A DNA stretch of 64,000 nucleotides from an uncultured Actinomycetes bacterium (GTDB lineage: Bacteria; Actinomycetota; Thermoleophilia; Gaiellales; Gaiellaceae): contig CAVTCK010000017.1 of assembly GCA_963733155.1 (NCBI GenBank), positions 9,590-73,589 on the forward strand. The letters are read 5' to 3'. The position numbers and the translations under genes were made by a program. Position 1 is the stretch's first letter; the number at the start of each line of letters is the position of its first letter. The notes beneath the pieces are model-generated. The model did not search any database. It saw only the letters and a program-made list of their open reading frames with translations, and was not told the DNA's origin. Positions 1 to 64,000 of this stretch are shown one piece after another.

Positions 1-1286
1 TTCGGCGTCGCGACGATCATGGTCGTCGCGATCGCGATGCTCGGCTCGCTGACCGTGCTCCCCGCACTGCTGTCGAGGCTCGGCGACAAGGTCGACCGGG
101 CTCGCGTTCCGCTCGTCGGCCGCCTGCGCCGCGAGGACGGCGAGGGTCGGATCTGGGGCGCGATCGTCGACCGCGTCCTGCGCCGGCCCGTGCTGTCGGC
201 GGTCCTCGCCGGCGGGTTGCTGGTCGGCGCTCGCGATTCCCGCGCTCCAGCTTCGCATGGTGCAAGCCGGGCCCGGACACGTTCCCGGAGTCCCTGCCCG
301 TCGTCCAGACGTACAACCGCATGCAGCAGGCGTTCCCCGGAACGGCTCTACCGGCCAACGTGGTCGTCAAGGCTCCGGACGTGAACGCGCCGACCATGCA
401 GGCGGCGATCGAGCAGCTCGAGCAGCGGGCGCTCGCGAGCGGCCGGATGCACGAGCCGATCACGGTCGACGTCAACGATGACGGGACGGTCGCGAACATC
501 ACGGTGCCCATCGACGGGAAGGGGACCGACGCGGTCTCGAACGCTTCGCTGGCTCTTCTCCGCGACGAGATCGTGCCCGACGACGGTGGGTGCGCTTCCG
601 GACACCGAGGCAGGCGTCACGGGCCTCACCGCCCAGTGGAAGGACGGCTACCGACGAGATCAAGTCGAAGCTGCCGCTCGTCGTCGGGTTCGTGCTCGTG
701 TTCGCCTTCACGCTCATGCTGGTTGCCTTCCGGTCGCCTGTGATCGCGGCCAAGGCGATCGTGCTCAACCTGCTCTCCGTGGCGCGCCGCCTACGGGGTG
801 CTCGTGCTCGTCTTCCAGCACGGCCTCGGCAAGAGCCTCCTCGGCTTCAACTCCACAGCGGGGATGGACCCGGTGGTCCCGCTGCTCCTGTTCGTGATCC
901 TGTTCGGGCTCTCGATGGACTACCACGTGTTCCTCCTGAGCCGCATTCGGGAGTTGGTTCAGCGTGGGGCGTCCACCGACGAGGCGGTCGCGCACGGAAT
1001 CAAGTCGACGGCCGGTGTCGTCACGAGCGCCGCGATCGTCATGGTCGCCGTCTTCGCGGTCTTCACGACGCTCTCGATGCTGATGTTCAAGCAGTTCGGC
1101 GTCGGCCTCGCGACCGCGATCCTGATCGACGCGACGATCGTCCGCGGGGTGCTCCTGCCCGCATCGATGAAGCTGCTCGGAGACTGGAACTGGTATTTGC
1201 CCAGCTGGCTCCAGTGGTTGCCTCGCTTCGACCTCTCCGAATCCGAGGCCTCGCCCGAGACGAAGCCGACCCCCGTCTCCGCCTAG
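1..1286 (+). pseudogene. MMPL/RND-type membrane transporter, C-terminal part (5' end lies outside the window), multiply frameshifted
   Basis: MMPL-like segments lie in different frames (ORFs 19-384, 257-481, 321-743, 478-897, 590-, 798-1286): LGSLTVLPALLSRLGDKVD; PDTFPESLPVVQTYNRMQQAFPG; EIKSKLPLVVGFVLVFAFTLMLVAFRS; LLFVILFGLSMDYHVFLLSRIRE. At least 5 frame changes. Confidence 0.8.
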
Positions 1287-1299
1287 ACCGAATGGTCAA

Positions 1300-1323
1300 C
1301 CCCCGGGCCTTGCGGCCCGGGGG
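1300..1323 (+). terminator. GC-rich stem-loop after the MMPL-like gene (possible intrinsic terminator, no clear U-tract)
   Basis: cccccgggcc-ttgc-ggcccggggg, a perfect 10-bp stem starting 14 nt after the TAG at 1284-1286. Confidence 0.4.
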
Positions 1324-1492
1324 TGACCGCGCAGGCTCTCTCGGTGGGGCTTGCCGATTCGGGATCGGTGTTTACTTGGCTGGGTTGACCGCGACTGGGG
1401 AGCCCGCCGACGGCGGCCTTCAAGGTCTCTTGACTGTGCGCATGCTTCCCTTCCGTCGTCCCCGTCAACCATTCAACGGAGGGCTGCGCCCA

Positions 1493-1888
1493 ATGACACT
1501 CAAGCTCATCAATCCCGACGAGCTGCCTACGCCGGAGTCTTATACGCAGGTCGTTGCCGCGAGCGGCACCCGGCTTGTGTTCGTTGCGGGACAGGTTGCC
1601 GACGACGCTCGGGGCAACCTTGTAAGCCCCGGCGACCTGGCTGGCCAAGCTCGCCACGCATTCGCCAACCTCGGCCGCTGCCTCGCCGCCGCTGGAGCGG
1701 TGCCGGAGCAAGTGACCAAGATCGTGATCTATGTCGTTCACCACCGGCCTGAGTATCTGCCTGCTATTTCGGAGGCCCGGATTGCGGTATTCGGTGATCA
1801 CAAGCCCGCCGACACCCTGTTGGGAGTGGAGGCGTTGGCCGAGCCCGGGTATTTGATCGAGATCGACGCAATCGCAGTTGTTGACTGA
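1493..1888 (+). CDS. RidA/YjgF-family reactive-intermediate deaminase
   Basis: 131-aa ORF from ATG 1493 (the tail of track ORF 590-1888). YjgF-like sequence: YTQVVAASGTRLVFVAGQVA ... EALAEPGYLIEIDAIAVV. Confidence 0.85.
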   Translation: MTLKLINPDELPTPESYTQVVAASGTRLVFVAGQVADDARGNLVSPGDLAGQARHAFANLGRCLAAAGAVPEQVTKIVIYVVHHRPEYLPAISEARIAVFGDHKPADTLLGVEALAEPGYLIEIDAIAVVD

Positions 1889-3537: not shown

Positions 3538-4179
3538 TCAGTCAGCGGTGGCGGTTGCATACTGCGGGCGCCCGGTGGGCCGATAGACCTGGATCGTTAC
3601 ACCCTTCGAGTCGGCTCGCGAGTCGACCAGGTCAAGCGCAATGTCCGGGCCGGCGTCGGGGAACAGCCGCGTGCCCTGGCCGAGGACCACGGGGACGATG
3701 AGCAGGTTGATCTCGTCGACGAGGTCGTTTTCGAGCAGCCATCGGATCAGTGCACCGCTGCCGTGCACCTGCAGCTCACCCGCCGGCTTGGCTTTCAGCT
3801 CGCCGATGGCAGCCGCGAGGTCACCGGAGAGGAGGGTGGTGTTCGCCCAGCGCGGTTCGGTGAGCGTGGTCGATGCGAGGTACTTGGGCTTCGTGTTCAA
3901 GGCATCTGCGATCGGGTGGTTGCCCGGATCTTCCGCCGCGGCGCGAGCCCGCTCCTCTGCGCCCCAGTAGCCGGCGAAGAGCTCGTAGGTCCGCCGGCCG
4001 AACAGGAACGCGTCGGCGCGCTGGTAGGTCTGGTTGATGAACGTCATGGTCTCGTTGTCGGCCACCCCCATGGCCCATCCGCCGCGCTCGAATCCGTTCC
4101 TGCGGTCCTCATCCGACGCGCCGCCGTTTCCCTGCATCACTCCATCGACGGTGACTTGCGTCATGGTGGTCAGTTTCAT
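3538..4179 (-). CDS. Dihydrofolate reductase family protein (RibD C-terminal domain type)
   Basis: MKLTTMTQVTVDGVMQG...FLFGRRTYELFAGYWG...ELQVHGSGALIRWLLENDLVDEINLLIVPVVLGQGTRLF. Start taken at the internal ATG 4179 of track ORF 3538-4224. Confidence 0.8.
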   Translation of the reverse strand: MKLTTMTQVTVDGVMQGNGGASDEDRRNGFERGGWAMGVADNETMTFINQTYQRADAFLFGRRTYELFAGYWGAEERARAAAEDPGNHPIADALNTKPKYLASTTLTEPRWANTTLLSGDLAAAIGELKAKPAGELQVHGSGALIRWLLENDLVDEINLLIVPVVLGQGTRLFPDAGPDIALDLVDSRADSKGVTIQVYRPTGRPQYATATAD

Positions 4180-4355
4180 GGGTCGTCCCTTCTCTCGTGG
4201 TGGTCTTCCTCGTTGTGACCGCACCGAGGCGCGGGCCTCATCGGTCGAGCGTGGCTCCGTGCTGCAAGTTCCCTCTGCCTCCTTCCCGATGGCCGCCGCC
4301 GCCGTCGCTCCGGCTTTCGCAACCGCACCGAGGAGCGCGCTGGCACGCCGAGAAC

Positions 4356-4784
4356 ATGCTCCCGGTCGTGAACGGCCGCAGACCCGCGGCCGCCTCTGAG
4401 CTCACGTTGCGCGAGCTCGTCGAGCTCTACGTCACCCGGCACGAGGCGATCCGCTCGCCGCGCACGATTGCGACCTTACGCGAGTGACTCAAGCGACCGC
4501 TCGACGCCTACGGCGAGACTCGCCTCGCCGAGCTCGAGACGATGGCGCTGGAGCTCGGCGCCTGGCGCGTGATGCGGCCGCCCCGCTACGCGCACAAGGT
4601 GATGGGCGTGCTCCGCCAGGTGCCGGCCGCCGCCCTCCGCTGGCGCCTGATGAGTACGAACCCTTCCGCCGGCGAGGGCGAGAACCCGGAGCCGCCGCCA
4701 CGGCCGGTGCGCGTCTACAGATTCGCCGAGCTCGACGCGCTCGAGGAGCAGGCCGAGGAGGGTCAATGGAGGGTAGGTCGGTAG
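4356..4784 (+). pseudogene. Tyrosine-recombinase (phage integrase) N-terminal remnant with an in-frame TGA; the catalytic domain is missing
   Basis: ELTLRELVELYVTRHEAIRSPRTIATLRE-TGA(4485-4487)-LKRPLDAYGETRLAEL...ALRWRLMSTNPSAGEGENPEPPPRPVRVYRFAELDALEEQA. The stop is in the same frame on both sides (CGA to TGA is plausible). The ORF ends where the opposite-strand gene 4763-5338 begins. Confidence 0.6.
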
Positions 4785-5338
4785 ATGAGCTCTTGGATGT
4801 GACCGTCGAGCGTCCGGTGCTCGAGCAGCTCCAGGTCGAAGTCGGCCGCACCCTGGAAGATCGGGTCCAGCCCGGTCTGACCGGTGATGACAGGAAAGAG
4901 CGTCACTTGCACGCAGTCGACGAGGCCGGCGGCCATCAGCGCCCGGTTCAACGACAGGCTGCCGTGCGAGCGCAGCGGCACCTCGGACTCCTCCTTGAGC
5001 CGGGGAACGACGTCGACGGCGTCACCGCTCACGACGGTCGCGTTCGGCCAGTCGAGGGGTTCCTCCAGCGTCGTCGACACCACGGTTGCCGGCATGCTCC
5101 TCATCCGGGTGACCCATGGGTCACGCACTTCGGACTCCTCGGTGCTCGAGGCCAGCATCCGCGCGAATGCCCGATACGTGTTGGCCCCGAAGACCATCCG
5201 CTGCTCCGGGCCGTACAAGGCAAGGCGGTGGTCAAGCAACTCGGGGCCTTGCTTACCCCAGTAGCCGGCCCAGTTTGCGCTGACAGAGCCGTAGCCGTCG
5301 AGGCTGGAAAAGACGTCGAAGGTGTAGGTAGCGGTCAT
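4763..5338 (-). CDS. Dihydrofolate reductase family protein (RibD C-terminal domain type), a paralogue of 3538-4179
   Basis: TFDVFSSLDGYG...MVFGANTYRAFARML...PLRSHGSLSLNRALMAAGLVDCVQVTLFPVITGQTGLDPIF. Confidence 0.8.
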   Translation of the reverse strand: MTATYTFDVFSSLDGYGSVSANWAGYWGKQGPELLDHRLALYGPEQRMVFGANTYRAFARMLASSTEESEVRDPWVTRMRSMPATVVSTTLEEPLDWPNATVVSGDAVDVVPRLKEESEVPLRSHGSLSLNRALMAAGLVDCVQVTLFPVITGQTGLDPIFQGAADFDLELLEHRTLDGHIQELIYRPTLH

Positions 5339-6644: not shown

Positions 6645-6828
6645 CGCGAGCGGTTGAAGCTAGGCGATCACCGCGAGACGAAGCCCTGCGTCACGCTTGA
6701 GCAGATTGCAGCGCCGAGTAGCGTTGGACAGGCGGGCCAGAGCTGAGGAACGTTCAGGGCACTGAGCTGCAACCGCAGAGTGCCCGGACGTCTGTGCCAC
6801 GTCGGGCGCAAGCCGCTTGAGCAAAGGA

Positions 6829-6902
<74 letters not shown>

Positions 6903-7006
6903 GGGCGCCGGACAATCTTAGCCGCGGACGGGCGTCCCCGGGCGTGCCCAAGCGGAGCGAGGCGCCGCCGGTCACGGCGACGCCCCGCTCCAGGGCGGGC
7001 TCGGTC

Positions 7007-7843: not shown

Positions 7844-8845
7844 ATGACAACGAGCCCGCCGCTCTACGGCACCGAGCAGTCGCGGTTCGCGCGATTCCTG
7901 GAGCACCGGGAGCAGCGCAGCCCTGACCCCGTGGCGCGCGAGCTTCGTCGCCGGCTGCTCGCGGGCCTGCGCGGTCGCGTGCTCGAGATCGGATGCGGTG
8001 ACGGGCGGGCCTTCGAGCTTTACCCGCCGGCCGTGACGAGCCTCCTCGCCGTCGAGCCGGACCCGACGGCTCGCGCGGCTGCGGCCTCCCGCGCGGGTGA
8101 GGCGCCGATTCCGATCGACGTGGTCGACGGTGTCGCCTCGGCGCTGCCGGCCGATGACGAAAGCTACGACGCGGCCGTCCTCATCTGGGTCCTCTGCAGC
8201 GTCCCCGACCCGTCCATGGCGTTGCTCGAGATCCGCCGAGTGCTCGTGCCCGGGGGAGAGCTTCGCTTCTACGAGCACGTCCGCTCTCGGCTGCGCTGGT
8301 CGGCACACGACTACATGCCCGCGGACGGCCTGCCCTATATCGGTCGAATGCGGCGCCGCGACGACCGGGTCTACGTGGCGACCGGCTTTGCGAAGTGGGG
8401 GCTGACGAAGGGGATGATCGCCGCCCGGATCATCACAGACGCCATCGTCGGAAGGCCGAATCCGTGGACCGACCTGTACGATCCCGGCCGCGTCACCCCC
8501 CGCGCCTCTGCGAAGGCGCTCGTGGTGGAAAACGCCCGGGTCGCGCGCCATTTCCTCGGCGATCGCCTCCGTCCACGCGCGGGAGGCGAGGTTCACCGCC
8601 TGGCGCCCGGCGAAGGCGCGGTCCTGCGGGTCGGCGGCCGTCATTTCGCGGTTTACCGAGACGACACTGGCACGCAGCACGTCCTCTCCGCGCGCTGTCC
8701 GCACCTCGGCTGCCTCGTCGAATGGAGCGAGGGCGACGAAACGTGGGAATGCCCGTGACACGGGTCACGCTTTACCGCTGAGGGCGCCGTCGTCCAGGGG
8801 CCCGCCACCGGCGATCTGGAGCGTCGCGACCTGCCACAGCGCTAG
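7844..8845 (+). pseudogene. Chimeric ORF: class I SAM-methyltransferase (3'-truncated) fused to the C-terminal part of an FAD-oxidoreductase/Rieske 2Fe-2S protein, with TGA at a Rieske Cys position
   Basis: The methyltransferase part (VLEIGCGDGRAF...VLVPGGELRFYEHVRS) switches at about 8295 to DGLPYIGR...VYVATGFAKWGLTKG...CPHLGCLVEW...WECP-TGA(8756-8758)-HGSRFTAEGAVVQGPATGDLE, ending at TAG 8843-8845 in the same frame. Confidence 0.65.
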
Positions 8846-36879: not shown

Positions 36880-36883
36880 GGGC

Positions 36884-50406: not shown

Positions 50407-50409
50407 GCC

Positions 50410-51153: not shown

Positions 51154-51734
51154 GCGACTACGCGGAATTCGCGCCCGACCCCCGGGTCCTCGTCGGCGGC
51201 TACATCGAGGCGGATCCCGCCTTCGCCCCGCGCCGGCCGGCCAGCGTGGACGAGGAGACGTTCAAGTCCGCGATGCGCTCGCTCGCCGCGGGCGTCGTCA
51301 TGGTGATCGCGCGCAAGGGCGACCGGCTCTGGGGCCTGACGATCAGCGCGTGCTGCTCGATCTCGGCCAACCCGCCCCGGGTGCTGATCTCGCTCGCCGA
51401 CGACGCGAGCTGCCGGGACGCGATCCTCGAGACGCGGCGCTTCGGCCTCAGCGTGCTCCGCGACGACCAGAAGCATCTGGCCGAGCTCGGCGCGGTGCCG
51501 GGCGCGCCCAAGTATGTGGACGTGTTCTGCGAGGACGCGGGCTCCGAGGAGCCGACGACGATGATCGCGGGCGCGCTCGTCCACCTCGAGTGCGCCGTCG
51601 AGCGCGTCTTCGGCGTGAGCGGCCACACGCTCCTGATCGGCGACGTTCAAGCAGTCGTCTCCTCGAGCCGCGAGGGCGGCCCGCTCCTCTACTTCGACCG
51701 CACCTTTCACGCGCTCGGAGACACCCTGCGATGA
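51150..51734 (+). CDS. Flavin reductase (FMN-binding split-barrel) family protein
   Basis: FKSAMRSLAAGVVMVIARKGDRLWGLTISACCSISANPPRVLISL...TLLIGDVQAVV...PLLYFDRTFHAL. GTG start in a GTGA overlap with the gntR-like gene. Confidence 0.8.
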   Translation: MSDYAEFAPDPRVLVGGYIEADPAFAPRRPASVDEETFKSAMRSLAAGVVMVIARKGDRLWGLTISACCSISANPPRVLISLADDASCRDAILETRRFGLSVLRDDQKHLAELGAVPGAPKYVDVFCEDAGSEEPTTMIAGALVHLECAVERVFGVSGHTLLIGDVQAVVSSSREGGPLLYFDRTFHALGDTLR

Positions 51735-51873
51735 GCGTCGCTCGCCTCCGGCTCGCTCCTGTGGGGGAAACCAGCGCTCCCCCACGGGCCCCCTTCTTTG
51801 AGACAGTGAGGGAACCTCCCGGTTCCCTCACACACCCTCCACACGCTCATAGGCCAAAGGTCGGCCTATGAGC
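51731..51873 (+). repeat. Family-A intercistronic repeat, copy 2 (46-codon ORF with ATGA overlaps at both ends; three hairpins)
   Basis: ORF MSVARLRLAPVGETSAPPRAPFFETVREPPGSLTHPPHAHRPKVGL, 51731-51871. Hairpins at 51761-51785, 51806-51831 and 51846-51872. Flanked by ATGAGCG on both sides. Confidence 0.85.
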
Positions 51874-53508
51874 GAGCGCTACGACGTCGTTTTCGTCGGC
51901 AGCGGCATCAACTCGCTCGTCGCTGCAGCTCTCCTCGCCCGCGGGGGGAAGCGCGTGCTCGTGCTCGAGCGCAACGACTACGTCGGGCGGCGCGATCCGG
52001 ACCGCGGAGATCACCGAGCCGGGCTTCGTGCACGAGGTCTTCTCCTCGCTGGCACCCGCTCTTCCTCGGCTCGGCGGCCTATGCCGAGCTTGGGGAGGAG
52101 CTGGGCTCGCGTGGCCTCGAGTACCTGAACACCGAGCTGCCGACGGCCTCGCTCTTCCCGGACGGCTCGAGCGCGTTCCTGAGCACGTCCCACGAGGCAA
52201 ACGTGGAGGAGTTCGAGCGGCTCGCGCCCGGGGACGGCGAAGCCTGGCGGCGGGTCGTCGACGGGTTCATGCCCACCGCCGACCTGGCGTTCGGCGTGCT
52301 CGGCACGGAGCTCTGGTCGTCGTCCGGCGCCGGCCTCGGCGTCAAGGCGTACCGCCGGCTGGGACGGCGCGGCCTGGTCGAGTTCAGCGGCGCTCTGCTC
52401 GCCTCCTGCCGCGACTGGGTCGCCGAGACGTTCGCCTCACCGCAGGTGCACGGGCTCCTCGCCCCGTGGGTCCTGCACACGGGGGTCGGGCCGGACGCGG
52501 CCTCCTCCGGGTTCATGACCCGCGTGATCGCGGTGGCGATCGAGCTCGGCGGCATGCCGGTTCCCCGCGGCGGCGGCGTGCGGCTCGTGGAGGCGCTCAC
52601 GGGGATCGTCCGCGACGCGGGCGGCGCCTGCGAGACGGGCCGCGACGTGGAGCGCGTCCTCGTCCGCGACGGACGCGCCGCCGGGGTCGCGCTCGCCGGG
52701 GGCGAGACCGTCGAGGCCGGGGAGGCCGTCGTCGCCAACGTCACTCCGACCCAGCTCTACGACCGGTTGCTCGCCGGCGTCTCGATCCCGGCCGAGACGG
52801 CGGAGGCGGCCCGCCGGTTTCGCTACGGCCGCGCGGGCATGCAGATCCACATGGCCCTCTCGGAGCCGCCGCGCTGGGCGGGCGACGAGCGGCTCGGGCG
52901 CACCGCGATCGTCCACCTCACGCCCGGCCTCGACGGCGTCTCCCGGGCGGTGAACGAGGCAGAGCGGGGGCTGCTCCCGGCCGAGGCGACGATCGTCTGC
53001 GGGCAGCCGACGACGGTCGACCCTTCGCGCGCTCCGGAGGGCGCGTCGATCCTGTGGATCCAGCTCCAGGAGCTGCCGGCGCACGTGCGCGGCGACGCCG
53101 CCGGCGAGCTCGACGTCGGAGACGGGGCGTGGACGGGAGGGCTTGCGGGAGCAGTACGCAGACCGCATCCAGGCCCGCCTCGCGCTGCAGATCGAGAACC
53201 TCGACTCGGCGCTCCTCGAGCGCGTCGTCCTCTCGCCCGCGGACATCGAGACGGCCAACATGAACATGGTCGGCGGCGACATCTACAGCGGCTCCTGCAG
53301 CCTCGACCAGAATCTCGTCTGGCGGCCGCGCCCCGAGCTTCCCGGCCACGGGACGCCGATCGACGGGCTGTACCACATCGGCGCGAGCACGCATCCCGGC
53401 CCCGGGCTGGGGGCGGGCTCGGGGACGCTCGTGGCGAAGCACCTGCTCAAGCCGCCGCTCCCCAAGCGGGCGCTCAGCCGCCTGGGATCGCTTCGGGAGC
53501 GGGTTTGA
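51868..53508 (+). pseudogene. Phytoene-desaturase-family NAD(P)/FAD-dependent oxidoreductase (CrtI-like), 3 frameshifts
   Basis: MSERYDVVFVGSGINSLVAAALLARGGKRVLVLERNDYVG / AIRTAEITEPGFVHEVFSS / HPLFLGSAAYAELG...MEEFERLAPGDGEAW...GMPVPRGGGVRLVEAL... / REQYADRIQARL...GGDIYSGSCSLDQ...GLYHIGASTHPGPGLGAGSG, in ORFs 51868-, 52028-, 52203- and 53143-53508. Confidence 0.8.
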
Positions 53509-53581
53509 CACTTGATAAAACATGGTTCAGAGTCGCGGCGGCGGGGCGTTGCGGCGCCTGGATCCGACCGGGAGGTAGAGG

Positions 53582-54676
53582 ATGAGGTTCAGCCTGTACT
53601 CGGAGATCCAGCACTGGCCGGGCAAGTCGCCGGCCCAGCTCTACGAGGAAGTGGTGGAGCAGGTGGTGAACGCAGACCGCCTCGGCTACCACGCATACGC
53701 CGCGATCGAGCACTTCTTCTTCCCCAAGTTCTCGATCTCCGCGAACCCGTTCGCGCTCTGGGGCATCTGCGCGGCCCGCACGAGCCAGATCAGGTTCCGG
53801 ACACTCGGTCACGTCCTCCCGTACCACAACCCGACGATCCTGGCGTCGCAGATCGCTGCGGCCGACATCTTCTTCGGCGGCCGCTACGAGTTCGGCGCCC
53901 TCCGCGGCCACGGGTGGATCCCGCTCAAGGCCGGCGTCCCGCTCGCCGAGACCCGCGACCGCTACGAGGAGTCGCTCGACATCCTCTTCACGGCGCTCGA
54001 GCAGGAACGGTTCTCCTACGACGGCGACTTCTACAAGATCGACGACTCACACGTGGTGCCACGGCCGCCGCGCAGCTTCCGCGTCTTCCTGGGCGGCACG
54101 AGCGACCGCACGTACGAGCTCGCCGCCGAGCGCGGCTGGGCCGTCGTCGTGCCCCCGCTCCTGCCCTACGCCGCGCTCAAGGAGCAGCTCGACCTCTACC
54201 GGTCGAAGTGCGCCGAGCACGGCACCGAGCCTGACATCGTCTGGATCCACGCTTGCTACATCGACGAGGACCGGGACGCCGCCAAGCGTGAGGCGGAGCA
54301 GGGCATGAAGCAGTTCCTGGCCGGCAACGCGTCGCCGCTCACGGAGGGCGACGAGCTGCCGCCGCCGGACGAGCTCGAGGCGGCCGGCTACGGGTTCTAT
54401 GCCGCCGGCATCCTCGAGCAGCTGGCGGAGACGCCCTACGACGAGATGATCGACGGCGACGTCATCTGGGTGGGGACGCCGGAAGACGTGATCGAGCGCA
54501 TCGAGGCGGTCCGCGACGTCTGCGAGGGCCTCACCGAGATCTCGATCACCGTCAATGCCGGCGGATTCGAGCACTGGCAGGCGATCAAGGCGCAGGAGCT
54601 CTTCGCGGCGAGGGTGATCCCGCACTTCCGCGAGCAGGCGCCGGTCGAGTCCACGGGCGATCCCGCCTACGCCTAG
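53582..54676 (+). CDS. LLM-class (luciferase-like) flavin-dependent oxidoreductase
   Basis: Intact 364 aa. MRFSLYSE...VVNADRLGYHAYAAIEHFFFPKFSISANP...FRTLGHVLPYHNP...FLGGTSDRTYELAAERGW. Confidence 0.8.
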   Translation: MRFSLYSEIQHWPGKSPAQLYEEVVEQVVNADRLGYHAYAAIEHFFFPKFSISANPFALWGICAARTSQIRFRTLGHVLPYHNPTILASQIAAADIFFGGRYEFGALRGHGWIPLKAGVPLAETRDRYEESLDILFTALEQERFSYDGDFYKIDDSHVVPRPPRSFRVFLGGTSDRTYELAAERGWAVVVPPLLPYAALKEQLDLYRSKCAEHGTEPDIVWIHACYIDEDRDAAKREAEQGMKQFLAGNASPLTEGDELPPPDELEAAGYGFYAAGILEQLAETPYDEMIDGDVIWVGTPEDVIERIEAVRDVCEGLTEISITVNAGGFEHWQAIKAQELFAARVIPHFREQAPVESTGDPAYA

Positions 54677-54723
54677 TGCCCCTCCAGGCAATACAAGCAA
54701 GCCGGCATTACCTGAAGGGGCAC
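54676..54723 (+). other. Long imperfect intercistronic hairpin (17-bp arms, 2 mismatches), comparatively AT-rich
   Basis: gtgcccctccaggcaat-N14-attacctgaaggggcac, lying between TAG 54674-54676 and GTG 54726. Confidence 0.5.
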
Positions 54724-54725
54724 TC

Positions 54726-55614
54726 GTGAGCCCGTCCGCTCCTCCCTTTGCGGTCTGCGAGTTCACGACGCTCAACGCGAGCTTCGAGGACGACCTTGCC
54801 GCGTATCGCGCGGCCGGCGCGAGCGGGATCGGCATCTGCGAGATCAAGCTCGAGGAGGGCCGCGAGGAAGAGCAGCTCGAAGCGTTCAGGGCGAGCGGCC
54901 TCGAGGCTACGAGCGCAGTCCCGGCGGTGCCGTCGATCCTGCCGCTTCCCCACCTTCCCGGTCCCGGAGGATCCGGCCGCGCGGATCGAGGCTCTCCGCG
55001 CGAGCGTCCGGCGGCTCGCGCCGTTCGAGCCGACCGCGCTCGTATGCCTGACCGGCCCGGCCGGGGCGCTCGGGAACGAGGACGCGCGGCGCCTCGTCGT
55101 CGCCGGGCTCCGAGCCGTCGCGGACGAGGCTGAGCGCGCAGGATTCCCCGTGGGGCTCGAGCCGATGAGCGCCCACTTCCGCGAGGACTGGACGATCGCG
55201 ACGACGCTCGACGAGGCGGCCGAGCTTCTGCGACGAGGCCGGCCACGAGAACGTCGGGATCCTCTTCGACACGTGGCATCTGTGGGACACCGCGGACCTG
55301 GCGGGGGCGATCCAGGGTCACGCGCCACAGGATCGTCGGCGTCCACGTGAACGACTGGCGTGAGGAGACGCGAGGCTGGTGCGATCGCGTTCTCCCGGGA
55401 GACGGTGTCGCGGACCTCCCGGCGATCCTCGGCGCGCTTGCGGACGCCGGCTGGAGCGGCGCCTACGAGCTCGAGGTCTTCTCCGGACGACGGGACGTTC
55501 GGATCGGCGTATCCCGATTCCCTCTGGAAGGAGGACGCCGGCGACCTCGCCCGCCGCGGACATGACGCGTTTCGCCAACTGTGGGAGCGGCCCGCCGTCG
55601 AAATGAAGGCGTGA
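54726..55614 (+). pseudogene. Sugar-phosphate isomerase/epimerase (xylose-isomerase-like TIM barrel), 4 frameshifts
   Basis: FAVCEFTTLNASFEDDLAAYRAAGASGIGICE / DPAARIEALRASVRRLAPF...GFPVGLEPMSAHF / DEAGHENVGILFDTWHLW / RIVGVHVNDW...LPGDGVADLPAILGALADAGWSGAYELEVFS / DGTFGSAYPDSLWKEDAGDLARRG, in alternating frames. Confidence 0.8.
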
Positions 55615-56618
55615 CTGAGCGCGTCTGCATCGTCGGGGGCGGCGTCATCGGCAGCCTCTATGCCGCCCATCTCGCCTCGGTCGCCGACGTGTGGGTGTTG
55701 ACGCGGCGGGCCGAGCACGCCCGCTCGCTCGAGGAGGACGGGCTCCGGGTCTCGGGGAAGCACGACTTCACTGCGCGCCTGCGGGCTACGTCCGACCCGG
55801 GTGAGCTGCCGGAGATCGATCTGGTCATCCTCGCGACGAAGGCGACCCAACTCGACGAGGCGGCGGCTGTCCTTGAGGGGCACGTTCCGAGAGCCACCGT
55901 GATGACCATCCAGAACGGCCTCGGCGCCGAGGAGATCGTGGGCCGCCACGGCGACTGGCCGATCGTCTCGGCCGTGACCTTCATGAGCGGTGACCGCCAC
56001 GCGGACACGCACGTCGAGTACGAGCTCGACACGCCCACGTGGTTGGGCCCGTACGCGGGGACCGGCACGCCGTTCGACCGGGTGCAGGAGATCGAGGGGC
56101 TTCTGCGCGCCGCGGGGCTCGAAGCGGAGGCGTTCCCGGACCTCCTGCCGGCGCAGTGGTCGAAGCTGATCTTCAACGCGACGGTGAACACGGTCTCGGC
56201 GCTCACCGGTCTCGGCCACGTGGAGCTCTTTGCCCGCGAGGAAGAGCCGACGGATCTCGGACGCCTCGTGCATGCGCTCATGGACGAGGGGATGCACGTG
56301 GCCGCGGCGGCGGGCGTCGAGCTGCACGAGGACCCGTGGGAGATGAACGTCCTCGCCGTGCAGAGGGGGGAGACGCAACAGAGCGACTATGCGCACGTGC
56401 CGTCCATGCTCGAGGACGTGCGTTCGTCGAGGCCGACCGAGGTCGACTTCATCACGGGCGCGCTCGTCCGCGAGGCCGAGCGGCTCGGCGTGGAGGTGCC
56501 GTTGCACACGGCGATGTACCGGTTGGTGAAGGGGAGAGAAGCGGCGTATCCGCCGGGAGAAGGCCGGGCTCCGGCGGTGGCCGGCGAAGTGAAAACGGTC
56601 GAGAGGAGTTCGGCATGA
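55611..56618 (+). CDS. Ketopantoate-reductase (PanE/ApbA) family oxidoreductase
   Basis: Intact. VCIVGGGVIGSLYAAHLA...LVILATKATQ...MTIQNGLG...QWSKLIFNATVNTVSALTG...SMLEDVRSSRPTEVDFITG. GTG in a GTGA overlap. Confidence 0.8.
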   Translation: MTERVCIVGGGVIGSLYAAHLASVADVWVLTRRAEHARSLEEDGLRVSGKHDFTARLRATSDPGELPEIDLVILATKATQLDEAAAVLEGHVPRATVMTIQNGLGAEEIVGRHGDWPIVSAVTFMSGDRHADTHVEYELDTPTWLGPYAGTGTPFDRVQEIEGLLRAAGLEAEAFPDLLPAQWSKLIFNATVNTVSALTGLGHVELFAREEEPTDLGRLVHALMDEGMHVAAAAGVELHEDPWEMNVLAVQRGETQQSDYAHVPSMLEDVRSSRPTEVDFITGALVREAERLGVEVPLHTAMYRLVKGREAAYPPGEGRAPAVAGEVKTVERSSA

Positions 56619-57848
56619 GAGGAACGACGAGATGGAGCTTGCTGCTCGCGCTCGTGCTGGCGTTCGGGCTCGCGGTTGCAGCCTGCGGCGGCGACGATGA
56701 CGACGACGGCGACGCGGCGGCGGACACGGCGACCACCGGGGAGGGCGAGGCGTCCGGCGAGCCGATCGTGATCGGCGCCGCGGTGGACCTGACGAATCAG
56801 ATGGCGCCCTTCGACGGGCCCGCCGTGACGGCGGCGCAGATCCAGGTGGACGCGATCAACGCAGGCAGGCGGCGTCGACGGCCGGCAGGTCGAGCTGCGC
56901 GTCGTCGATCACCAGCTTGACCCGGAGCGAACGAAGTCCGCGGCGATCGAGCTGATCGACGGCGGCGCCGAGGTCCTGCTCGTGACCTGCGACGTCGACT
57001 TCGCCACCCCGGCCGTACAGGAGGCGATCACGCGGGGAGTCCTCGCGGTGGCGCCCTGCATCGGGACCGATCAGATGGGCCCGGAGCGCTTCGGCGACGC
57101 GGGGAAGCTCGCGTTCAGCATCGGCAACGTCGCGCAGGACGAAGGCGCGGCCATGGCCGAGTTCGCGATCGAGCAGGGCTGGATGACCGCTGCGACGGTG
57201 ACCGACAACGTCATCGTCTACTTCCAGGACGTCGTCAAGGCGTTCGCGGCGCGGTACGAGGAGCTCGGCGGCGAGATCGCGGTCGAGGAGTCGTGGACGC
57301 AGGGCGACGGGACGATCCAGAACGTCGTCAGCTCCCTCGACGGCGCGAACGTCGACGTGATCGCCACGTCGACCGCGTTCGACGACATGCCCGCCCTCGT
57401 CGGCGGCCTCCGCAGCCTCGGCAACGAGACGCCGATCATCTGCGGCTGGTCGTGCGACGGCAACTACTGGCTGCCGGAGGGCACGAGCAACTTCTACACC
57501 GTGACCTATGCGTCGGTCTTCGGCGACGATCCGAGCACCGAGGTGCAGGCGTTGATCGACGAGATGACGGCTCAGGACCAGGCCCCCGGCACCGGCGGCT
57601 TCATCACCGGCGCCGCGGCCATCGACGCGATCGCGGCGGCGGTCGAGGAGACCGGCGGCACCGAGGGCGAGGCGCTCGCGGACGCGTTCGAGTCGTTCGA
57701 CGGCCTCGAGACGATCTCGGGGGACATCAGCTTCTCCGAGGAGTTCCACTCGGTCTTCGGTCGCGAGTACCGAGTGATGGAGGTGCAGAACAGCCAGCCC
57801 GCGTTCGTCGAGCTGAGGGCGGCCAGCTCGCCCGCCGAGATCGAGTGA
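56615..57848 (+). pseudogene. livK: LivK-like ABC substrate-binding lipoprotein, one frameshift near 56865
   Basis: Lipobox LAVAACGG and PIVIGAAVDLTNQMAPFDGPAVTAAQIQVDAINA (ORF 56039-56920), then GGVDGRQVELRVVDHQLDP...LLVTCDVDFATPAVQEA... (ORF 56982-57848 frame). Confidence 0.8.
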
Positions 57849-57855
57849 TCGCCGT

Positions 57856-58615
57856 GTGACCGATACGGCGCCGGAAGCCCGCCGCTGGCCCGGAGAGACT
57901 CTCCGGGCCAGCGGCATATCACGCTCCTTCGAAGGCGTGCACGCGCTCAACGGCGTGTACGCTCGAGCTGCATCGCCACGAGGTCGTCGGGCTGATCGGC
58001 CCGAACGGCGCCGGGAAGACGACGCTCGTCAACATCGTCACGGGCTTCGACTCCCCTACCGAGGGCGAGGTCGAGCTCGCGGGTGAGGCGATCACGTCGT
58101 GGGCGCCCCACCGCCGGGCGCGGGCCGGGCTGGCGCGGACGTACCAGCAGGGGAGGCTCTTCTCCGGCCTCTCGGCGCGCGAGAACGTCGAGGTGGCCGC
58201 GCTCGGCGTCGGTGCCTCGCCCCGCGAGGCGAGGCGGCGGGCCGGCGAGCTCCTCGCCCTGCTCGGGCTCGAGCGCCGCGCGGACTCCTCGGCGGCCGTC
58301 CTCCCGCACGGAGAGGAGCGAAAGCTCGGCGTCGCGCGCGCGTTGGCCACCGATCCTCGTTTCGTCCTCATGGACGAGCCGGCGGCGGGCCTGTCCGAGG
58401 CCGAGGTGCCGGACTTCGCAGAGGTCGTGCGGACGGTGCGCGAGGAGCGCGAGGCCGGCGTGCTCCTGATCGACCACAACGTCGCCCTCATCCTCGAGGT
58501 CTGCGACCGCATCCAGGTTCTCGACCAGGGCAGGACGCTCGCCGAGGGAACGCCGGCAGAGATTCGGCGCAACATCGACGTCACGGCCGCCTACCTCGGG
58601 AGCGCGCGTGCGCTA
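57856..58615 (+). pseudogene. livG: LivG-like ABC ATP-binding protein; a frameshift near 57957 and no in-frame stop before repeat B2
   Basis: ISRSFEGVHALNGV, frame change, then LELHRHEVVGLIGPNGAGKTTLVNIVTG...LPHGEERKLGVARALATDPRFVLMDEPAAGL...LLIDHNVALI...DVTAAYLGS. Confidence 0.8.
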
Positions 58616-58780
58616 AGAACCCGTTTCGAAATGAAGCCGGGTGTCGCCGGAACGCCCTGGACGGCGCGATTCTGCGTCCTCGGTCGCGCCCGTATTCTCG
58701 AATACGAGCGCTCCCTGCGTCCTTGCCTCGCACTCGCCCAGGACGCCCCGACGACAGCGCGTCATTCCAAAATGAGTTCT
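58616..58780 (+). mobile_element. Family-B MITE-like repeat, copy 2, between the livG-like and livF-like genes
   Basis: TIRs agaacccgtttcgaaatgaagc / gcgtcattccaaaatgagttct (17/22). Hairpin cgcccgtatt-ctcg-aatacgagcg at 58687-58710. Open in the livG frame throughout. The livF-like ATG (58772) lies inside the right TIR. Confidence 0.8.
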
Positions 58781-59493
58781 GACGCCATCCTCGAGCTCCG
58801 GGATCTCGAGCTCCGCTACGGCGGCGTCCCCGCGGTGCGCGGCCTCAGCCTGCGGCTCGAGCGCGGCGAGGTGGTGGGGCTCGTCGGCCCGAACGGAGCC
58901 GGGAAGACCTCGACGCTCCTGGCGATCATGGGCGTCGTCCAGCCGTACCGCGGGGAGATCCTGCACGCTCGGGCGGCCGCTCGCGGGCCTCGGGACGGAC
59001 GCGATCGTGCGCTCGGGAGTCGCGCTCGTGCCCGAGGGACGGCAGATCTTCCCGGAGCTCACGGTCGAGGAGAATCTCAGGCTGGGGCTGGTCGGCCGCC
59101 GCTCGCGGGACGGCGCCGAGGATGACCTCGCGCGCGTCGCCGCCCTCTTCCCCGTCGTCGGCGGGGACCGCCACCGCCCTGCGGGCGTGCTCTCCGGCGG
59201 GCAGCAGCAGCAGCTTGCGATCGCGCGGGCGCTCGTCGCCCGGCCCGACCTTCTCCTCCTCGACGAGCCCTCCCTCGGGCTTGCGCCGACGGTCGTCGAG
59301 GATGTCTTCGCCGCGCTGGCGGAGATCCGGGAGGGCGGCGTCACGATCCTGCTCGTCGAGCAGCGGGCGCAGTTCGCCGTCGGCTTCGCCGACCGCACCC
59401 ACGTGCTCGCGAACGGGCGAGCTCAGGCTCACGCTGACTCCGGCGGACGCGGACGACACCGCCCGCATCACCGCGGCCTACTTCGGATCGTGA
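58772..59493 (+). pseudogene. livF: LivF-like ABC ATP-binding protein, 2 frameshifts
   Basis: ILELRDLELRYGGVPAVRGLSLRLERGEVVGLVGPNGAGKTSTL / GVALVPEGRQIFPELTVEENL...LSGGQQQQLAIARALVARPDLLLLDEPSLGL...ILLVEQ / [25 protein letters not shown]. Confidence 0.8.
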
Positions 59494-59506
59494 CTGGAGG
59501 GCGGCC

Positions 59507-60392
59507 ATGAGTGCGCTCCAGACCCTGATCGACGCGGTCGCGCTCGGGTCGATCTACGCGCTCGTCGCCATGGGGATCGGCCTCGTCTTCGGCGTCATGC
59601 GGCTGATCAACTTCGCTCACGGGGAGCTGATCACTGCCGGGCGCCTACGCTCTCGCCCTCACGAACCACTTGCCGCTCGCGGTGAGCCTCGTCGCCTGCT
59701 TCGGCGTCGTGGTCGCGCTCGCGCTCGCGATGGACGTGACCTACCGGCCGCTGCGGACGACGACGCCGACCACGATGCTGGTGACGACGTTCGCCGTCTC
59801 GTTCCTCCTCCAGGCCGTGGCGCTCCTCGCGTTCGGCGCGCGGGGGAAAACGTCGGCGTGCTCCCCGAGCTGAACCGGGCCGTGTCGATCGGCGACCTTC
59901 GCATCCGGTGGGTGACGCTCGTCTCCATCGCGGTGGGCGGCGTGCTCCTCGGAGCGACGGCCGCCGTCCTGCTACGCGGACGGATATCGGGCTCCAGATG
60001 CGCGCGGCGGCGATGAACGCGCAAACGGCGCGGCTGCTCGGCGTGCGCGCCTCGACGGTCATCCGTTTCGCGTTCGTCCTTGCCGGGATCTCGTGGCCGC
60101 CTCGGCGACCGTCCTGCTCACGGTCCAGCGGCCCCTCGTCACACCGACCTACGGCTTCCAGCTCGTCATCCCGGCGCTCGTGGGGGTGGTGGTCGGGGGC
60201 ATGGACCGGCTCGTGAGCGCGACGCTCGGCGGCTTCGCGATCGGCTTCGCGGCCGCCGTGCTCGGCGACGTCCTCCCCGCCGACGGGCGCGTCTTCCTGG
60301 ACACCGCGCTCTTCCTGCTCGTCATCCTCGTCCTGCTCGCGCGCCCGAGCGGGCTCTTCACCCGCTCGCGCGCGGCCTGGGAGCGGCTGTGA
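59507..60392 (+). pseudogene. livH: LivH-like ABC permease, 4 frameshifts
   Basis: [45 protein letters not shown] / [13 protein letters not shown]...[25 protein letters not shown] / [18 protein letters not shown] / [19 protein letters not shown] / LLTVQRPLVTPTYGFQLVIPALVGVVVGGMD...LLARPSGLF. Confidence 0.8.
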
Positions 60393-61390
60393 GGCGCGTC
60401 GCCGAAGGATCGCAGCTACTCGCGCCGGTCCTGCTGCTGGCCCTCGTCGGGGTGGTCGGGAGCTTCACGTCGCGGTCGGTGCAGTTCCAGTTCCGCTTTG
60501 CGCTCGTGATGGCGACGATCGTGATCGCGCTCTACGTCTTCGTGGGGAACTCGGGGGTCGTCTCCTTCGGGCACATCAGCTTCGTGGCCGTCGGCGCCTT
60601 CGCAGCAGGCCTGACGACCGTGCCGGAGGCGCTCAAGCTCTCGCTCAGCCCCGATCTCTTCCCGGTCATCGCGAGCGCCGAGGTGGGGAACGCCGTCTCG
60701 CTTCTCCTCGCCGCAGCCGTAGGCGGCCTCTACGCCCTGCTCGTCGGCGGGCCGCTCATGCGGCTGTCCGGGCTCTCGCGCGGGCATCGCCACCTTCGCC
60801 GTGCTCGTGATTACGAACAACGTCCTCCGGAACTGGGAGGCGATCGGCCCGGGGGCCAGGACGCTCTCGCTGGTCCCGGAGACGACCGGCTTCCTCCAGG
60901 GGACGGTGGGTGTGATCGCGGTCGCCGTGCTGGCCTTCCTCTACCAGCGCAGCCGCTTCGGCCGGGTGCTGCGCGCCTCGAGCGAGGACACCGCCGCCGC
61001 CGAAGGAGCGGGAATCGACATCTACCGGCAGCGGTTGCTCGCCTTCGCGCTCTCGGCGCGCTGGCCGGATTCGCCGGCGGCCTGCTCGTCCACCTCCTCG
61101 GCAGCATCACGACGCAGCAGGTGTACCTCGACCTCACCTTCATCACCCTCGCCATGCTCGTGATCGGCGGCGTCCGCAGCCTCTGGGGGGCGGTCGTGGG
61201 CGCGCTGCTCGTGAGCGGCGTCAACTCCTTGCTGCTCACGGCCGAGAACGGGCTCGATTTTGGGGTGACCGAGCTCAACGTCCCCACGGGGACGCGCCTG
61301 GTTACGCTGGGCGTCGTCATGACGCTGATCCTCCTCTTCCGGCCGCGCGGCCTCACGGGTGGCCGCGAGGTGACGCTGAGGAGGTCGTGA
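60389..61390 (+). pseudogene. livM: LivM-like ABC permease with a compensating frameshift pair (about 60780 and 61060); the ORF stays open but about 93 codons are read out of frame
   Basis: Track ORF 60080-61390 is continuous. However, its middle (SRGHRHLRRARDYEQRPP...) is nonsense, while ORF 60801-61163 carries the real sequence (VITNNVLRNWEAIGPGARTLSLVPETTGF...RVLRASSEDTAAAEGAGIDIYRQRLLAFALS). Confidence 0.75.
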
Positions 61391-62310
61391 CGCGGGTTTG
61401 CGTCGTCGGGTGCGGGGCCGTCGGCTCCCTCTTCGCGGCGTCTCTCGCGCAGCTCGACGACGTCGAGGTCTGGGCGTACGACCTCGATGCCGAGCACGTC
61501 CGCGAGATCGGCGAACGCGGACTCCGCCTCTCGGGGGCCGGCGAGCTCGTCGGCAGGCTGCACGCGACGACCGACGCCTCGGGCCTGCCTCCCTGCGAGC
61601 TCGGAATCGTGGCGACGAAGAGCATGCACACGGACGCCGCCGTGGCAGCTGCCGCCCACGCTCTCGCGGAGGGCGCCGTCTGCTCCGTCCAGAACGGGCT
61701 CGGGAACGAGGAGGCGATCGCCGCCCACGTGCCCCGCGTGATCCGGGGCACGACCTTCCCGGCCGGCCACATTGTCGAGCCGGGCCACGTCCACTGGGAC
61801 GTCAAGGGCGACACGACGATCGGCCCCTTCGAGCCGAGCCCGGCCTCGATGGAGGAGGTCGAGCGGCTCGCGGACTCCTGCACACGGGCTGGGCTGCCGA
61901 CGGAGGCGGTCCCCGACGCGCGCGGCCCGCAGTGGCGGAAGGTCATCTTCAATGCGGCGACGAACCCGGTTGGAGCCCTCACGGGGCTGACGCACGGCCG
62001 GGTCTGCGAGGACGCCGGGCTGCGCCGGCTCGTCAGCGGCCTCGTGGACGAGGGCAAGGCCGTGGCTGCGGCGCAGAAGATCGTGCTCGACGCCGACCCC
62101 GAGGAGCTGATCGACTACGCCGCCCGTCCCGACGTCGCCTACGAGCACAAGGCGAGCATGCTCCAGGACGTCGAGGCTCGCCGGCAGACGGAGATCGACT
62201 ACCTGAACGGCGGCATCGCCCGCTTCGGCCGTGACCACGGCGTCGAGACTCCGCTGAACGAGGCGGTGACCGCGCTGATCAAGGGACTGGAGGCATCGTG
62301 GGAGCGATAA
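61387..62310 (+). CDS. Ketopantoate-reductase (PanE/ApbA) family oxidoreductase, second paralogue
   Basis: Intact 307 aa. VCVVGCGAVGSLFAASLA...GIVATKSMHT...SVQNGLGNEE...QWRKVIFNAATNPVGALTG...SMLQDVEARRQTEIDYLNG. GTGA overlap with the livM-like gene. Confidence 0.8.
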   Translation: MTRVCVVGCGAVGSLFAASLAQLDDVEVWAYDLDAEHVREIGERGLRLSGAGELVGRLHATTDASGLPPCELGIVATKSMHTDAAVAAAAHALAEGAVCSVQNGLGNEEAIAAHVPRVIRGTTFPAGHIVEPGHVHWDVKGDTTIGPFEPSPASMEEVERLADSCTRAGLPTEAVPDARGPQWRKVIFNAATNPVGALTGLTHGRVCEDAGLRRLVSGLVDEGKAVAAAQKIVLDADPEELIDYAARPDVAYEHKASMLQDVEARRQTEIDYLNGGIARFGRDHGVETPLNEAVTALIKGLEASWER

Positions 62311-63431
62311 GCGGCGAGGTCGAGCGGCGGTTCCGGAACGTCAGAGAGGCGCTCGTGCGGAACAACCTCGACGCCGCCGTCGTCGCGGGAAGCGAATACA
62401 CGGGCTTCGAGGGGGCGGTGACGTACCTGTCGGGGTTCGTGATCGTCCACCGCTACGCGTACGTGCTGCTCCCGCTCGACGGCGAGCCTACCGTCGTCTT
62501 CCCGGCCGAGGCCCGCTACGTGGGCGAGCACGGGACGACGTGGATCGAGGAGCAGGTCTTCGTCGAAACGCCCGGCGCGTGGCTCCGCGAGCGGGCGACC
62601 GAGCGCGGCTGGAACCGGCTCGGCGTCTACGGGCTCGACTACGTCATGCCCGTGCGCGACTACCGGGCGCTGGCGGACGGCGGGCCGGAGGTCGTCTCCT
62701 TCGACGTCGACTTCGACCTCGCGCGCGCGGTGAAGAGCGAGGAGGAGATCGCCTCGGTGCGCGAGAGCGTCCGGATCAACGCGGAGGGCTTCTGGATCTT
62801 CCTGGAGGAGTTCGCGGTCGGGAAGAGCGAGGCCGAGCTCCTGGCGCCCTGCGAGCGCTACTTCGTCGAGCAGGGGTGCGGGCGGCTGACGATGGACATG
62901 GTGCTCGTGGGCGAGGGCGGCGCCGCGGAGCCCGAGTTCCGCATCGCCAGCCCCGAGCGGCGCATTCGTGCGGGCGACCTCGTCCTGCCCTCGCTCGAGA
63001 TCGCGGGCCCCGGCGGGCACTGGGTCGAGGTCTCCCGCGCGATCGCCGACGGCGAGCCGGGAGACGAGGCCAGGCGCATGCTCGAGGCGTACGAGGAGTA
63101 CTTCGAGGTGGCCCGCACGGCCATGCGGCCCGGCGCCTCGGCACACGACGTGCACCGGGCCGTCGCACGGGGCTTCGCCGAGCGCGGCTACCAGCTCGGC
63201 CATGTCACCGGCCACTCGATCGGGATGACGATGATCGAGTTCCCGAAGATCGGCGAGGGCGTCGAGACGGAGCTCGCCGAGAACATGGTCTTCTCGATGC
63301 ATCCCCACGCGATCGCTTCCGACGGGAAGGCGTGCCTCTACATGCAGGACACGTGGCTCGTGACGTCCGAGGGCGGCGAGCCGCTCGCGGGCCTGCCCAT
63401 GCGGATCTTCCAGGGCGGCGAGTCGCGCTAA
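62298..63431 (+). CDS. M24-family metallopeptidase (creatinase/Xaa-Pro-peptidase-like), intact paralogue of 47661-48829
   Basis: VKSEEEIASVRESVRINAEGF...MDMVLVG...AGDLVLPSLEIAGPGGHWVEVSRA...GHVTGHSIGMTMIEFP...MVFSMHPH...MQDTWLVT. Confidence 0.8.
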   Translation: MGAISGEVERRFRNVREALVRNNLDAAVVAGSEYTGFEGAVTYLSGFVIVHRYAYVLLPLDGEPTVVFPAEARYVGEHGTTWIEEQVFVETPGAWLRERATERGWNRLGVYGLDYVMPVRDYRALADGGPEVVSFDVDFDLARAVKSEEEIASVRESVRINAEGFWIFLEEFAVGKSEAELLAPCERYFVEQGCGRLTMDMVLVGEGGAAEPEFRIASPERRIRAGDLVLPSLEIAGPGGHWVEVSRAIADGEPGDEARRMLEAYEEYFEVARTAMRPGASAHDVHRAVARGFAERGYQLGHVTGHSIGMTMIEFPKIGEGVETELAENMVFSMHPHAIASDGKACLYMQDTWLVTSEGGEPLAGLPMRIFQGGESR

Positions 63432-63437
63432 CGGGCT

Positions 63438-63920
63438 CTAGGACGCCTCGCAGTCGTCGTCGACGACCGCGGCGCCGGGGAGTCGCGAGAGCAGCGAGGA
63501 AAGCGTGGCGAGCTCCTCGTCGCTGAACCGCCCGACGAAGAGGGATTCGATGCCGGCGACGTGCGTCCGCGAGGCCTCGCGCAGCTTCTCCAAGCCCTCC
63601 GGCGTCAGCTTCGCCCAGACCACGCGGCGGTCTTCGGGGCAATTGAGACGCTCGACGAGCTCGGACTGCTCGAGACCTTCCAGGAGCCGGGTGATGCCCG
63701 ACGCCGTCAGCAGGACGCGGTCGGCCAGGTCGACGCGGCGCAGCCTTCGCTCGGGGGCCCGCGCGAGGTGCAGGAGCACCTCGTAGTCGTTGATCGTGAG
63801 CCCGTGCTCCGCTACGAGCTCGGCGGAGAGCTCGCGAGTCAGCGCCGCATGGGCGCGGAGAAACCGGATCCAGGCGTCGAGCCTGGAGGTGTCGGGAAGC
63901 GCCTGGGTGCTCACGGTCAT
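63438..63920 (-). CDS. MarR-family transcriptional regulator
   Basis: LTINDYEVLLHLARAPERRLRRVDLADRVLLTASGITRLLEGLEQSELVERLNCPEDRRVVWAKLTPEG. Confidence 0.85.
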   Translation of the reverse strand: MTVSTQALPDTSRLDAWIRFLRAHAALTRELSAELVAEHGLTINDYEVLLHLARAPERRLRRVDLADRVLLTASGITRLLEGLEQSELVERLNCPEDRRVVWAKLTPEGLEKLREASRTHVAGIESLFVGRFSDEELATLSSLLSRLPGAAVVDDDCEAS

Positions 63921-64000
63921 GGGATGACTGTAGTGATCTCGTCAGCGAGGGCGCGCCGGAGGATGTCCAGGAGCGCTTGCTGATCGGCCGCCGAGAGCGC
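63917..64000 (-). CDS. 3' end of a further gene (MarR-like C-terminus?), truncated by the window edge
   Basis: ALSAADQQALLDILRRALADEITTVIP-stop. Its TGA overlaps the ATG of the MarR gene (ATGA). Confidence 0.4.
   Translation of the reverse strand, partial: ALSAADQQALLDILRRALADEITTVIP

Follow-up and report, generated by a model that had tools for sequence, protein, structure and literature searches.

The stretch under study, hereafter the window, comprises the 64,000 nucleotides at positions 9590-73589 of contig C17 in assembly G000, a metagenome-assembled genome (MAG) of 2.75 Mb in 28 contigs with ~70% G+C, and this work concerns the frame changes that interrupt its genes. As judged from sequence comparison, the bulk of these lesions very probably arose as insertion errors in the consensus of a long-read MAG. 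The lesions are specific to this assembly, biased towards insertions, located outside homopolymers, blind to selection, distributed over the whole genome and free of accompanying substitution decay, and the cause behind them appears to be consensus error tied to depth or strain mixture in Nanopore-only data. Frame changes were counted by frameshift-aware protein-to-DNA alignment of relatives' intact proteins with the window, which gave a total of ~75-80, close to the ~80 of a first-pass annotation made from the letters alone.

In the scenario proposed here, a medium-quality MAG from an uncultured Gaiellaceae-type actinobacterium, assembled most probably from long reads alone, would keep residual errors in its consensus, most of them single extra bases, and their rate would vary by stretch and by contig, with variation in local read depth or strain mixture as the likely cause of these differences. 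Each extra base would shift the frame, so that about half of the genes would look like pseudogenes, while short genes and genes in better-covered stretches would escape by chance. The genes themselves are most likely intact in the living organism. Of the two explanations offered in the first-pass annotation, indel-rich consensus error is thus the one that fits the great majority of lesions, and ongoing loss of catabolic and transport capacity found no support, as the Liv, cox and PLP-enzyme genes keep a signature of purifying selection.

Polarity, lesion spectrum and selection

The lesions were assigned to the window by comparison with three relatives. The genome G015 is collinear with the window over 27.6-64 kb at ~85% nucleotide identity, and alignment of its open reading frames (ORFs) with that interval gave ~71 relative frameshifts, the few at 61.8-62.7 kb belonging to G015 itself. 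A closer reference is L065, an NCBI MAG contig found via the class V aminotransferase, whose proteins share 91-97% amino-acid identity with those of the window and whose cluster is intact throughout (coxLSM, cupin, LivKHMGF, kynureninase-like, TDO, AKR, OCD, PALP, TrpB-like and histidine kinase genes); L067, a short-read-style contig, served as the second relative for polarity. With the L065 proteins as reference, 36 frameshifts were found in the window between 25 and 44 kb, in comparison with one in G015 and none in L067. For the class V enzyme, all 120 public homologues out of 120 were full-length (the closest being 94% identical), and each of the 15 closest homologues listed placed the four breaks identically in the window. 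In addition, ten positions at which the first-pass annotation had advised a check each lie within 12 nt of an indel relative to the relatives (29343, 29506, 29595, 34631, 36747, 42059, 42310, 43118, 57958 and 60779). No second assembly with identical proteins was found by exact-protein look-ups with three intact window proteins.

Further evidence came from a codon log-odds model trained on G000, which, applied to the window as a seven-state frame labelling, yielded 165 segments; short frame changes on one strand are numerous among them. For most frameshifts, the window shows a switch of the codon-usage frame where G015 shows none. This coding-frame test replaced a reverse control of window ORFs against G015 (0.69 events/kb), which was confounded because off-frame translation still aligns at 85% nucleotide identity and shifts of the window itself show up in mirror image. 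That the protein sequences remain readable across the breaks would also be expected if the organism decoded them in vivo by programmed frameshifting, transcript slippage or editing, but nothing specific speaks for such decoding; the sites share no common slippery motif or homopolymer, their positions within genes are random, and the same proteins are encoded in one frame in close relatives, which makes this idea scarcely credible.

At the nucleotide level, the window differs from L065 by 39 one-base insertions and 15 one-base deletions. No identical neighbouring base was present at 29 of the 39 insertions, so that the concentration of indels in homopolymers known as the classical Nanopore R9 signature was absent from this set; such a spectrum counts against an R9-type error mode, not against consensus error as such. 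Among the 29 clean insertions the added base was a G in 16, and a new CpG was created in 16 where 9.3 were expected (p ~0.008). On the contig + strand the insertions at 28990-43990 are asymmetric, with 16 G, 5 C, 6 T and 2 A. The bias towards G and CpG may be the fingerprint of a base-caller or polisher. It could also be read as a real and recent burst of non-homopolymer, G/CpG-biased +1 insertions, the work of an unusual mutator process in a lineage of soil actinobacteria, either too recent for substitutions to follow or tolerated by some recoding, although a process of this kind seems highly improbable.

A deletion bias is characteristic of genuine bacterial pseudogenes. It was seen neither in the window, with its 39:15 ratio of insertions to deletions, nor on six other contigs, where 63 +1 events stand against 23 -1 events. 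The latter figures derive from 163 long ORFs, taken from ~370 kb of G015 and aligned to G000, of which 83 had clear orthologues on the six contigs. A frameshift was present in 52 of the 83, with 99 events in 103.6 kb (0.96/kb), and the genes hit include those for DnaK, UvrA, UvrB, PcrA, NuoD, NuoF, NuoL, NuoM, the membrane H+-pyrophosphatase and ornithine carbamoyltransferase, at 88-97% amino-acid identity. Essential genes are therefore not spared, as DnaK, PcrA and NuoD/F/L/M are frameshifted, and frameshift density bore no relation to conservation across the 83 orthologues (rho 0.09). The number of unhit orthologues, 31, is near the 28.4 expected from random placement. Two other essential genes sought for the same purpose, rpoB and rpoC, are absent from the assembly, from which it follows that the MAG is also truly incomplete and that part of its low completeness is of this origin. 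The gyrA gene is divided between two contig ends (C23:3-2178 and C6:146149-146379), with a frame change ~160 nt from the end of C23, and the 23S rRNA gene is cut off at the end of C12.

Substitutions gave no sign of decay. Drift long enough to accumulate up to eight indels/kb should add many extra and non-synonymous substitutions together with several nonsense codons, and these were not shown by the broken genes. When the window was aligned jointly with L065 and G015 over 32.8-44 kb and across the TrpB-like gene, the two blocks of broken genes carry 307 substitutions unique to the window lineage and 417 unique to the sister lineage. Third codon positions account for 70% of the window-specific substitutions in broken genes and for 78% of those in the sister lineage, in comparison with 33% under neutrality, and neither relaxed selection nor an excess of substitutions was found in these genes. 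Two nonsense codons that had appeared in coxL against G015 were alignment artefacts and disappeared with the closer reference L065.

These results bear directly on the possibility that the pseudogenisation is genuine and very recent, with the accessory island (Liv, CODH-like and kynurenine-type genes) being lost as in reductive evolution and further losses throughout the genome. This account can draw on the location of the hot region in an accessory cluster lacking in four of five sampled relatives, on the sharp drop in density at the adjacent core gene, on overdispersed per-gene counts and on the existence of real remnants at 4-12 kb. It is nevertheless very unlikely, since the indels show an insertion bias instead of the deletion bias known of genuine pseudogenes and lie outside homopolymers, since the rate of hits is the same in DnaK, PcrA, UvrA/B and four Nuo subunits as in weakly conserved genes, since up to 8 indels/kb come with no excess of substitutions and with the third-position bias kept, and since density differs five-fold between whole contigs. 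Mass pseudogenisation is well known in host-restricted or reductively evolving bacteria such as Mycobacterium leprae and Sodalis glossinidius, in which essential genes are spared, deletions prevail, selection is relaxed in dead genes and insertion sequences have often bloomed. G000 resembles these genomes in that about half of its genes are interrupted, genome size is kept, and intact and broken genes are interleaved; it departs from them in that essential genes are hit equally, insertions dominate and the signature of purifying selection persists.

A closer parallel is offered by Nanopore-only assemblies and MAGs with gene-fragmenting indels, of the kind revealed by IDEEL-type analysis of protein truncation (Sereika et al. 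2022, PMC9262707; MFD-LR, PMC12313526), where frameshifts are genome-wide and include housekeeping genes, proteins continue across the breaks, and completeness is low despite a normal size and few contigs. The completeness of G000 is estimated at 52.4%, and same-genus genomes of equal size score 88-96%. A search with one window protein retrieved Gaiellaceae/Thermoleophilia MAGs, several of them 'MFD...bin' genomes, that is, Microflora Danica Nanopore MAGs. The Microflora Danica long-read catalogue is Nanopore-only, was assembled with Flye --meta and one round of Medaka, and takes medium-quality MAGs from 50% completeness (PMC12313526); several close relatives of G000 come from such a Flye and Medaka pipeline, with its acceptance of at least 50% completeness, which is circumstantial for G000 itself. 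Low-coverage MAGs with Nanopore-associated errors are acknowledged by the catalogue's authors (PMC12313526; PMC9262707). One difference is that homopolymer indels dominate the classical account, whereas most events here add one base away from homopolymers, with inserted G and new CpG in excess.

Variation in density along the window and between contigs

Frame changes are very unevenly distributed, as had been noticed from the letters alone, and two tests show that this clustering is statistically real. Among 34 island genes, 13 carry no frame change, in comparison with 6.3 expected at a uniform rate (p = 0.00015), and the 6.5 kb of the core flank hold one event, where the island rate would predict 12.3 (p = 6e-5). 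Three successive island blocks have densities of 2.9 (28.98-39.07 kb), 1.85 and 1.2 per kb, and the core genes at 20.8-28.96 kb have 0.15 per kb. By a hand calculation, block-specific rates remove most of the excess of unhit genes. At these rates the odds of escaping by chance are ~0.4 for coxS (0.49 kb) and ~0.2 for the FAH gene (0.86 kb); since short genes escape so readily, intact and broken genes can alternate inside operons without any special explanation. This alternation was itself confirmed by the relatives, both coxS, between broken coxM and coxL, and FAH, between broken M20 and M24 genes, being intact.

The hottest stretch (28982-39073, minus strand) contains 29 frame changes in nine genes according to alignment with relatives, where ~30 had been estimated by eye. 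They fall in the PALP dehydratase-like gene (8), OCD (3), AKR (2) and the class V aminotransferase/kynureninase-like gene (4), all four of which had been listed as hit, and in LivF (1), LivG (3), LivM (4), LivH (1) and the LivK-like gene (3), so that the five Liv genes are indeed all affected. The TDO gene (32023-32750, + strand) is intact inside this stretch. Just outside it, the TrpB-like pyridoxal-phosphate (PLP) enzyme (27591-28964, minus strand) is intact and 93-97% identical at the amino-acid level in all relatives, and indel density jumps just beyond it. On the + strand at 40049-43812, alignment revealed 6 frame changes in the coxM and coxL genes, with 2 insertions in the coxM-like gene, none in the coxS-like gene and 4 in the coxL-like gene. 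The ~11 frame changes at 44.2-48.8 kb (44240-48826, + strand) belong to a luciferase-like monooxygenase (4-5), an M20 peptidase (2) and an M24 peptidase (5), with none in the FAA hydrolase.

A 2.9-kb cold stretch follows (48826-51734, + strand), with four successive genes, one HMGL-like, free of frameshifts. The next block, with a second transporter and oxidoreductases (51868-61390, + strand), carries ~17 frame changes within 51.9-61.4 kb, namely in the amine-oxidase-like gene (3), AP_endonuc_2 (4), the genes at 56615-57848 (1), 57850-58612 (1) and 58781-59490 (2), and the LivH-like (4-5) and LivM-like (2) genes; two intact genes are interleaved (53582-54676 and 55581-56618). The ApbA/PanE-like and M24 genes (61387-63431, + strand) are intact, and the frames broken here are those of G015, in which the counterpart of 61.4-63.4 kb on its contig C1 has the ApbA-like and M24 genes in four pieces; G015 is thus an imperfect assembly too, though far cleaner. 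Between 28.98 and 63.4 kb, the aligned genes showed no structural lesion.

Towards the other end, the window start cuts an MMPL-family transporter (10-1341, + strand; MMPL domain, 86% amino-acid identity to the orthologue in the relative G006) that carries six +1 events, at 226, 266, 582, 646, 785 and 1239, and a few more frame changes occur at 4-27 kb. The core genes for an L,D-transpeptidase/peptidoglycan-binding protein and two bPH_2 proteins (20811-24697, + strand) have no frameshift. Most of the long genes first listed as intact proved so against relatives' proteins (20811-22013, 23261-24697, 27591-28964, 48826-49998 and 53582-54676). For 62298-63431 the same conclusion was reached from a single open frame and a complete match to the M24 domain, the G015 copy being the fragmented one, and for 13170-14660 it is borne out by open frame and domain match only.

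Beyond the window, a reference-free index of same-strand frame switches gave 12.5 per 10 kb in G000 (variance/mean 5.7, 95th percentile 32); for G015 the value was 6.0 (variance/mean 1.6). Contig by contig, G000 ranges from a baseline of 0.6/kb to 3.2/kb, and the hot stretch of the window is accordingly unexceptional within this assembly. Contrasts on the scale of whole contigs are more in keeping with depth or strain effects than with biology. The densities of neighbouring genes show a weak correlation (rho 0.25, p 0.035), a sign of a regional rate, and no correlation was seen between error density and G+C.

Several observations weigh against or qualify consensus error as the source of the lesions. 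Density jumps exactly at the border between the core gene and the accessory cluster (~28.97 kb), and unhit genes number twice the prediction of a uniform rate; selection acting gene by gene could yield both. The insertions lie outside homopolymers, unlike the homopolymer deletions of the classical Nanopore signature. Moreover, a 23S/internal transcribed spacer (ITS) stretch of 3.6 kb has only 2 unique indels, and the 2.7-kb secA gene is intact, so that the error rate must vary strongly. The 23S/ITS stretch was not decisive as an rRNA test, its indels being no more than in relatives. The sites at 35122 and 37555 look like two alleles written side by side, and strain mixture may contribute.

In this regard, the artefact could stem from strain mixture and not from low depth, if strains were collapsed in the assembly and the polisher wrote both alleles as adjacent bases at polymorphic sites. 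Single-base insertions would then be densest where strains differ most, for example in accessory islands. At 35122 and 37555 the extra base is the allele of one relative and the adjacent base that of the other, divergence from L065 peaks in the hot block at 28.98-32.7 kb (82-85% nucleotide identity, in comparison with 92-94%), and the rRNA region and conserved core genes are clean. On the other hand, both relatives agree at most insertion sites (e.g., 36747 and 38182), and highly conserved genes such as uvrA (97% amino-acid identity) are hit as well, which leaves strain mixture as the driver in place of low depth possible but rather unlikely.

Stops, remnants and a deletion fusion at 4-12 kb

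A small second layer of lesions at 4-12 kb, in a tRNA-linked variable region, is probably real and includes a gene fusion, an integrase-like remnant and their nonsense codons. Structural lesions, as expected of genuine pseudogenes, are limited to these two loci. The fusion (7850-8758, + strand) joins Methyltransf_11 (positions 1-94 of 95), DAO (302-352 of 353) and Rieske (9-63 of 88) matches. At the joint (~8276-8295), a complete SAM methyltransferase domain is directly followed by the last ~50 positions of DAO and then by the Rieske domain, which agrees with the deletion fusion first proposed near ~8295. This is a deletion of roughly 300 codons (~900 nt); it cannot be a base-calling error, and the locus is probably a real gene remnant. 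The Rieske match ends at TGA 8756, which occupies the expected place of the second cysteine of the CxxH motif, as read from the translation.

The other remnant is a short ORF (4339-4767, + strand) that resembles an integrase N-terminus by eye and contains an in-frame TGA at 4485-4487, the coding-potential segment spanning the stop. Pfam returned no family for its 48-residue piece, and the integrase assignment was not confirmed by that search; it is likely a genuine relic beside tRNA-linked integration scars. This remnant lies between two minus-strand RibD_C (dihydrofolate-reductase-like) genes (3541-5338), and the whole stretch lies downstream of a tRNA-Asp (6826-6903). A scan of the window with Rfam found four tRNAs and nothing else.

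All three in-frame stops initially reported (TGA 4485, TGA 8756 and TAG 11619) are present. The third one (11619-11621) belongs to an Mn-catalase gene (10910-11927, minus strand), in which one extra base is also found near 11078. The affected codon is GAG or AAG in relatives and falls in a variable segment, and the stop could be either genuine or a substitution error. Substitution errors, a few of which would create stops, are also plausible in an assembly that has more than 75 indel errors in 64 kb, and two of the three stops sit in genes already reduced to truncated remnants. For these two reasons the nonsense codons are not decisive, and the initial suggestion that stops and fusion favour real decay holds for a handful of lesions at ~4-12 kb (the fusion and the integrase-like remnant), without the stops tipping the balance for the rest.

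Accessory cluster, dispersed repeats and meaning for annotation

The segments at 24.7-27.5 kb and 28.98-63.4 kb form an accessory catabolic cluster with TDO and kynureninase-like genes, two Liv-type transporters, a CODH-like enzyme and luciferase-like monooxygenases. They are absent from four relatives (G014, G018, G012 and G006), where the bPH_2, TrpB-like and 63.45-kb genes are adjacent, and occur in G015 and, in part, in L065 and L067, with a mosaic identity of 82-94% at the nucleotide level. Between its PALP and TrpB-like genes, L065 contains exactly 1000 extra bases with no called gene (15215-16229), at the place corresponding to the density jump at window ~28983.

Two families of dispersed repeats were also found, neither of which matches an Rfam family. 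A ~170-bp repeat at 47437-47608 and 58613-58780 has terminal inverted repeats, folds as one long hairpin and is similar to a miniature inverted-repeat transposable element (MITE), with ~30 copies in G000 and many in every genome of the genus. An intergenic repeat of ~143 bp at 23128-23267 and 51731-51874 contains three or four strong hairpins and has at least 15 copies in G000, with copies 85-96% identical across the genus.

For other assemblies of this type, the distinction between artefact and decay can be approached without reads by tests that are reusable, namely polarity against two relatives, the spectrum of insertions and deletions, blindness to selection, branch-specific substitutions by codon position and a reference-free index of frame switches. 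Were the lesions real, a free-living soil actinobacterium would be undergoing a genome collapse driven by insertions and without precedent, and the evidence is strongly against it. The frame breaks are most likely a warning about data quality and not a sign of gene decay or a real biological feature. Annotators of G000, or of similar low-coverage long-read MAGs, would otherwise call about half of the genes pseudogenes and underestimate completeness, at the risk of falsely inferring that the organism has lost branched-chain amino-acid transport, the CODH-like enzyme and kynurenine-type catabolism.

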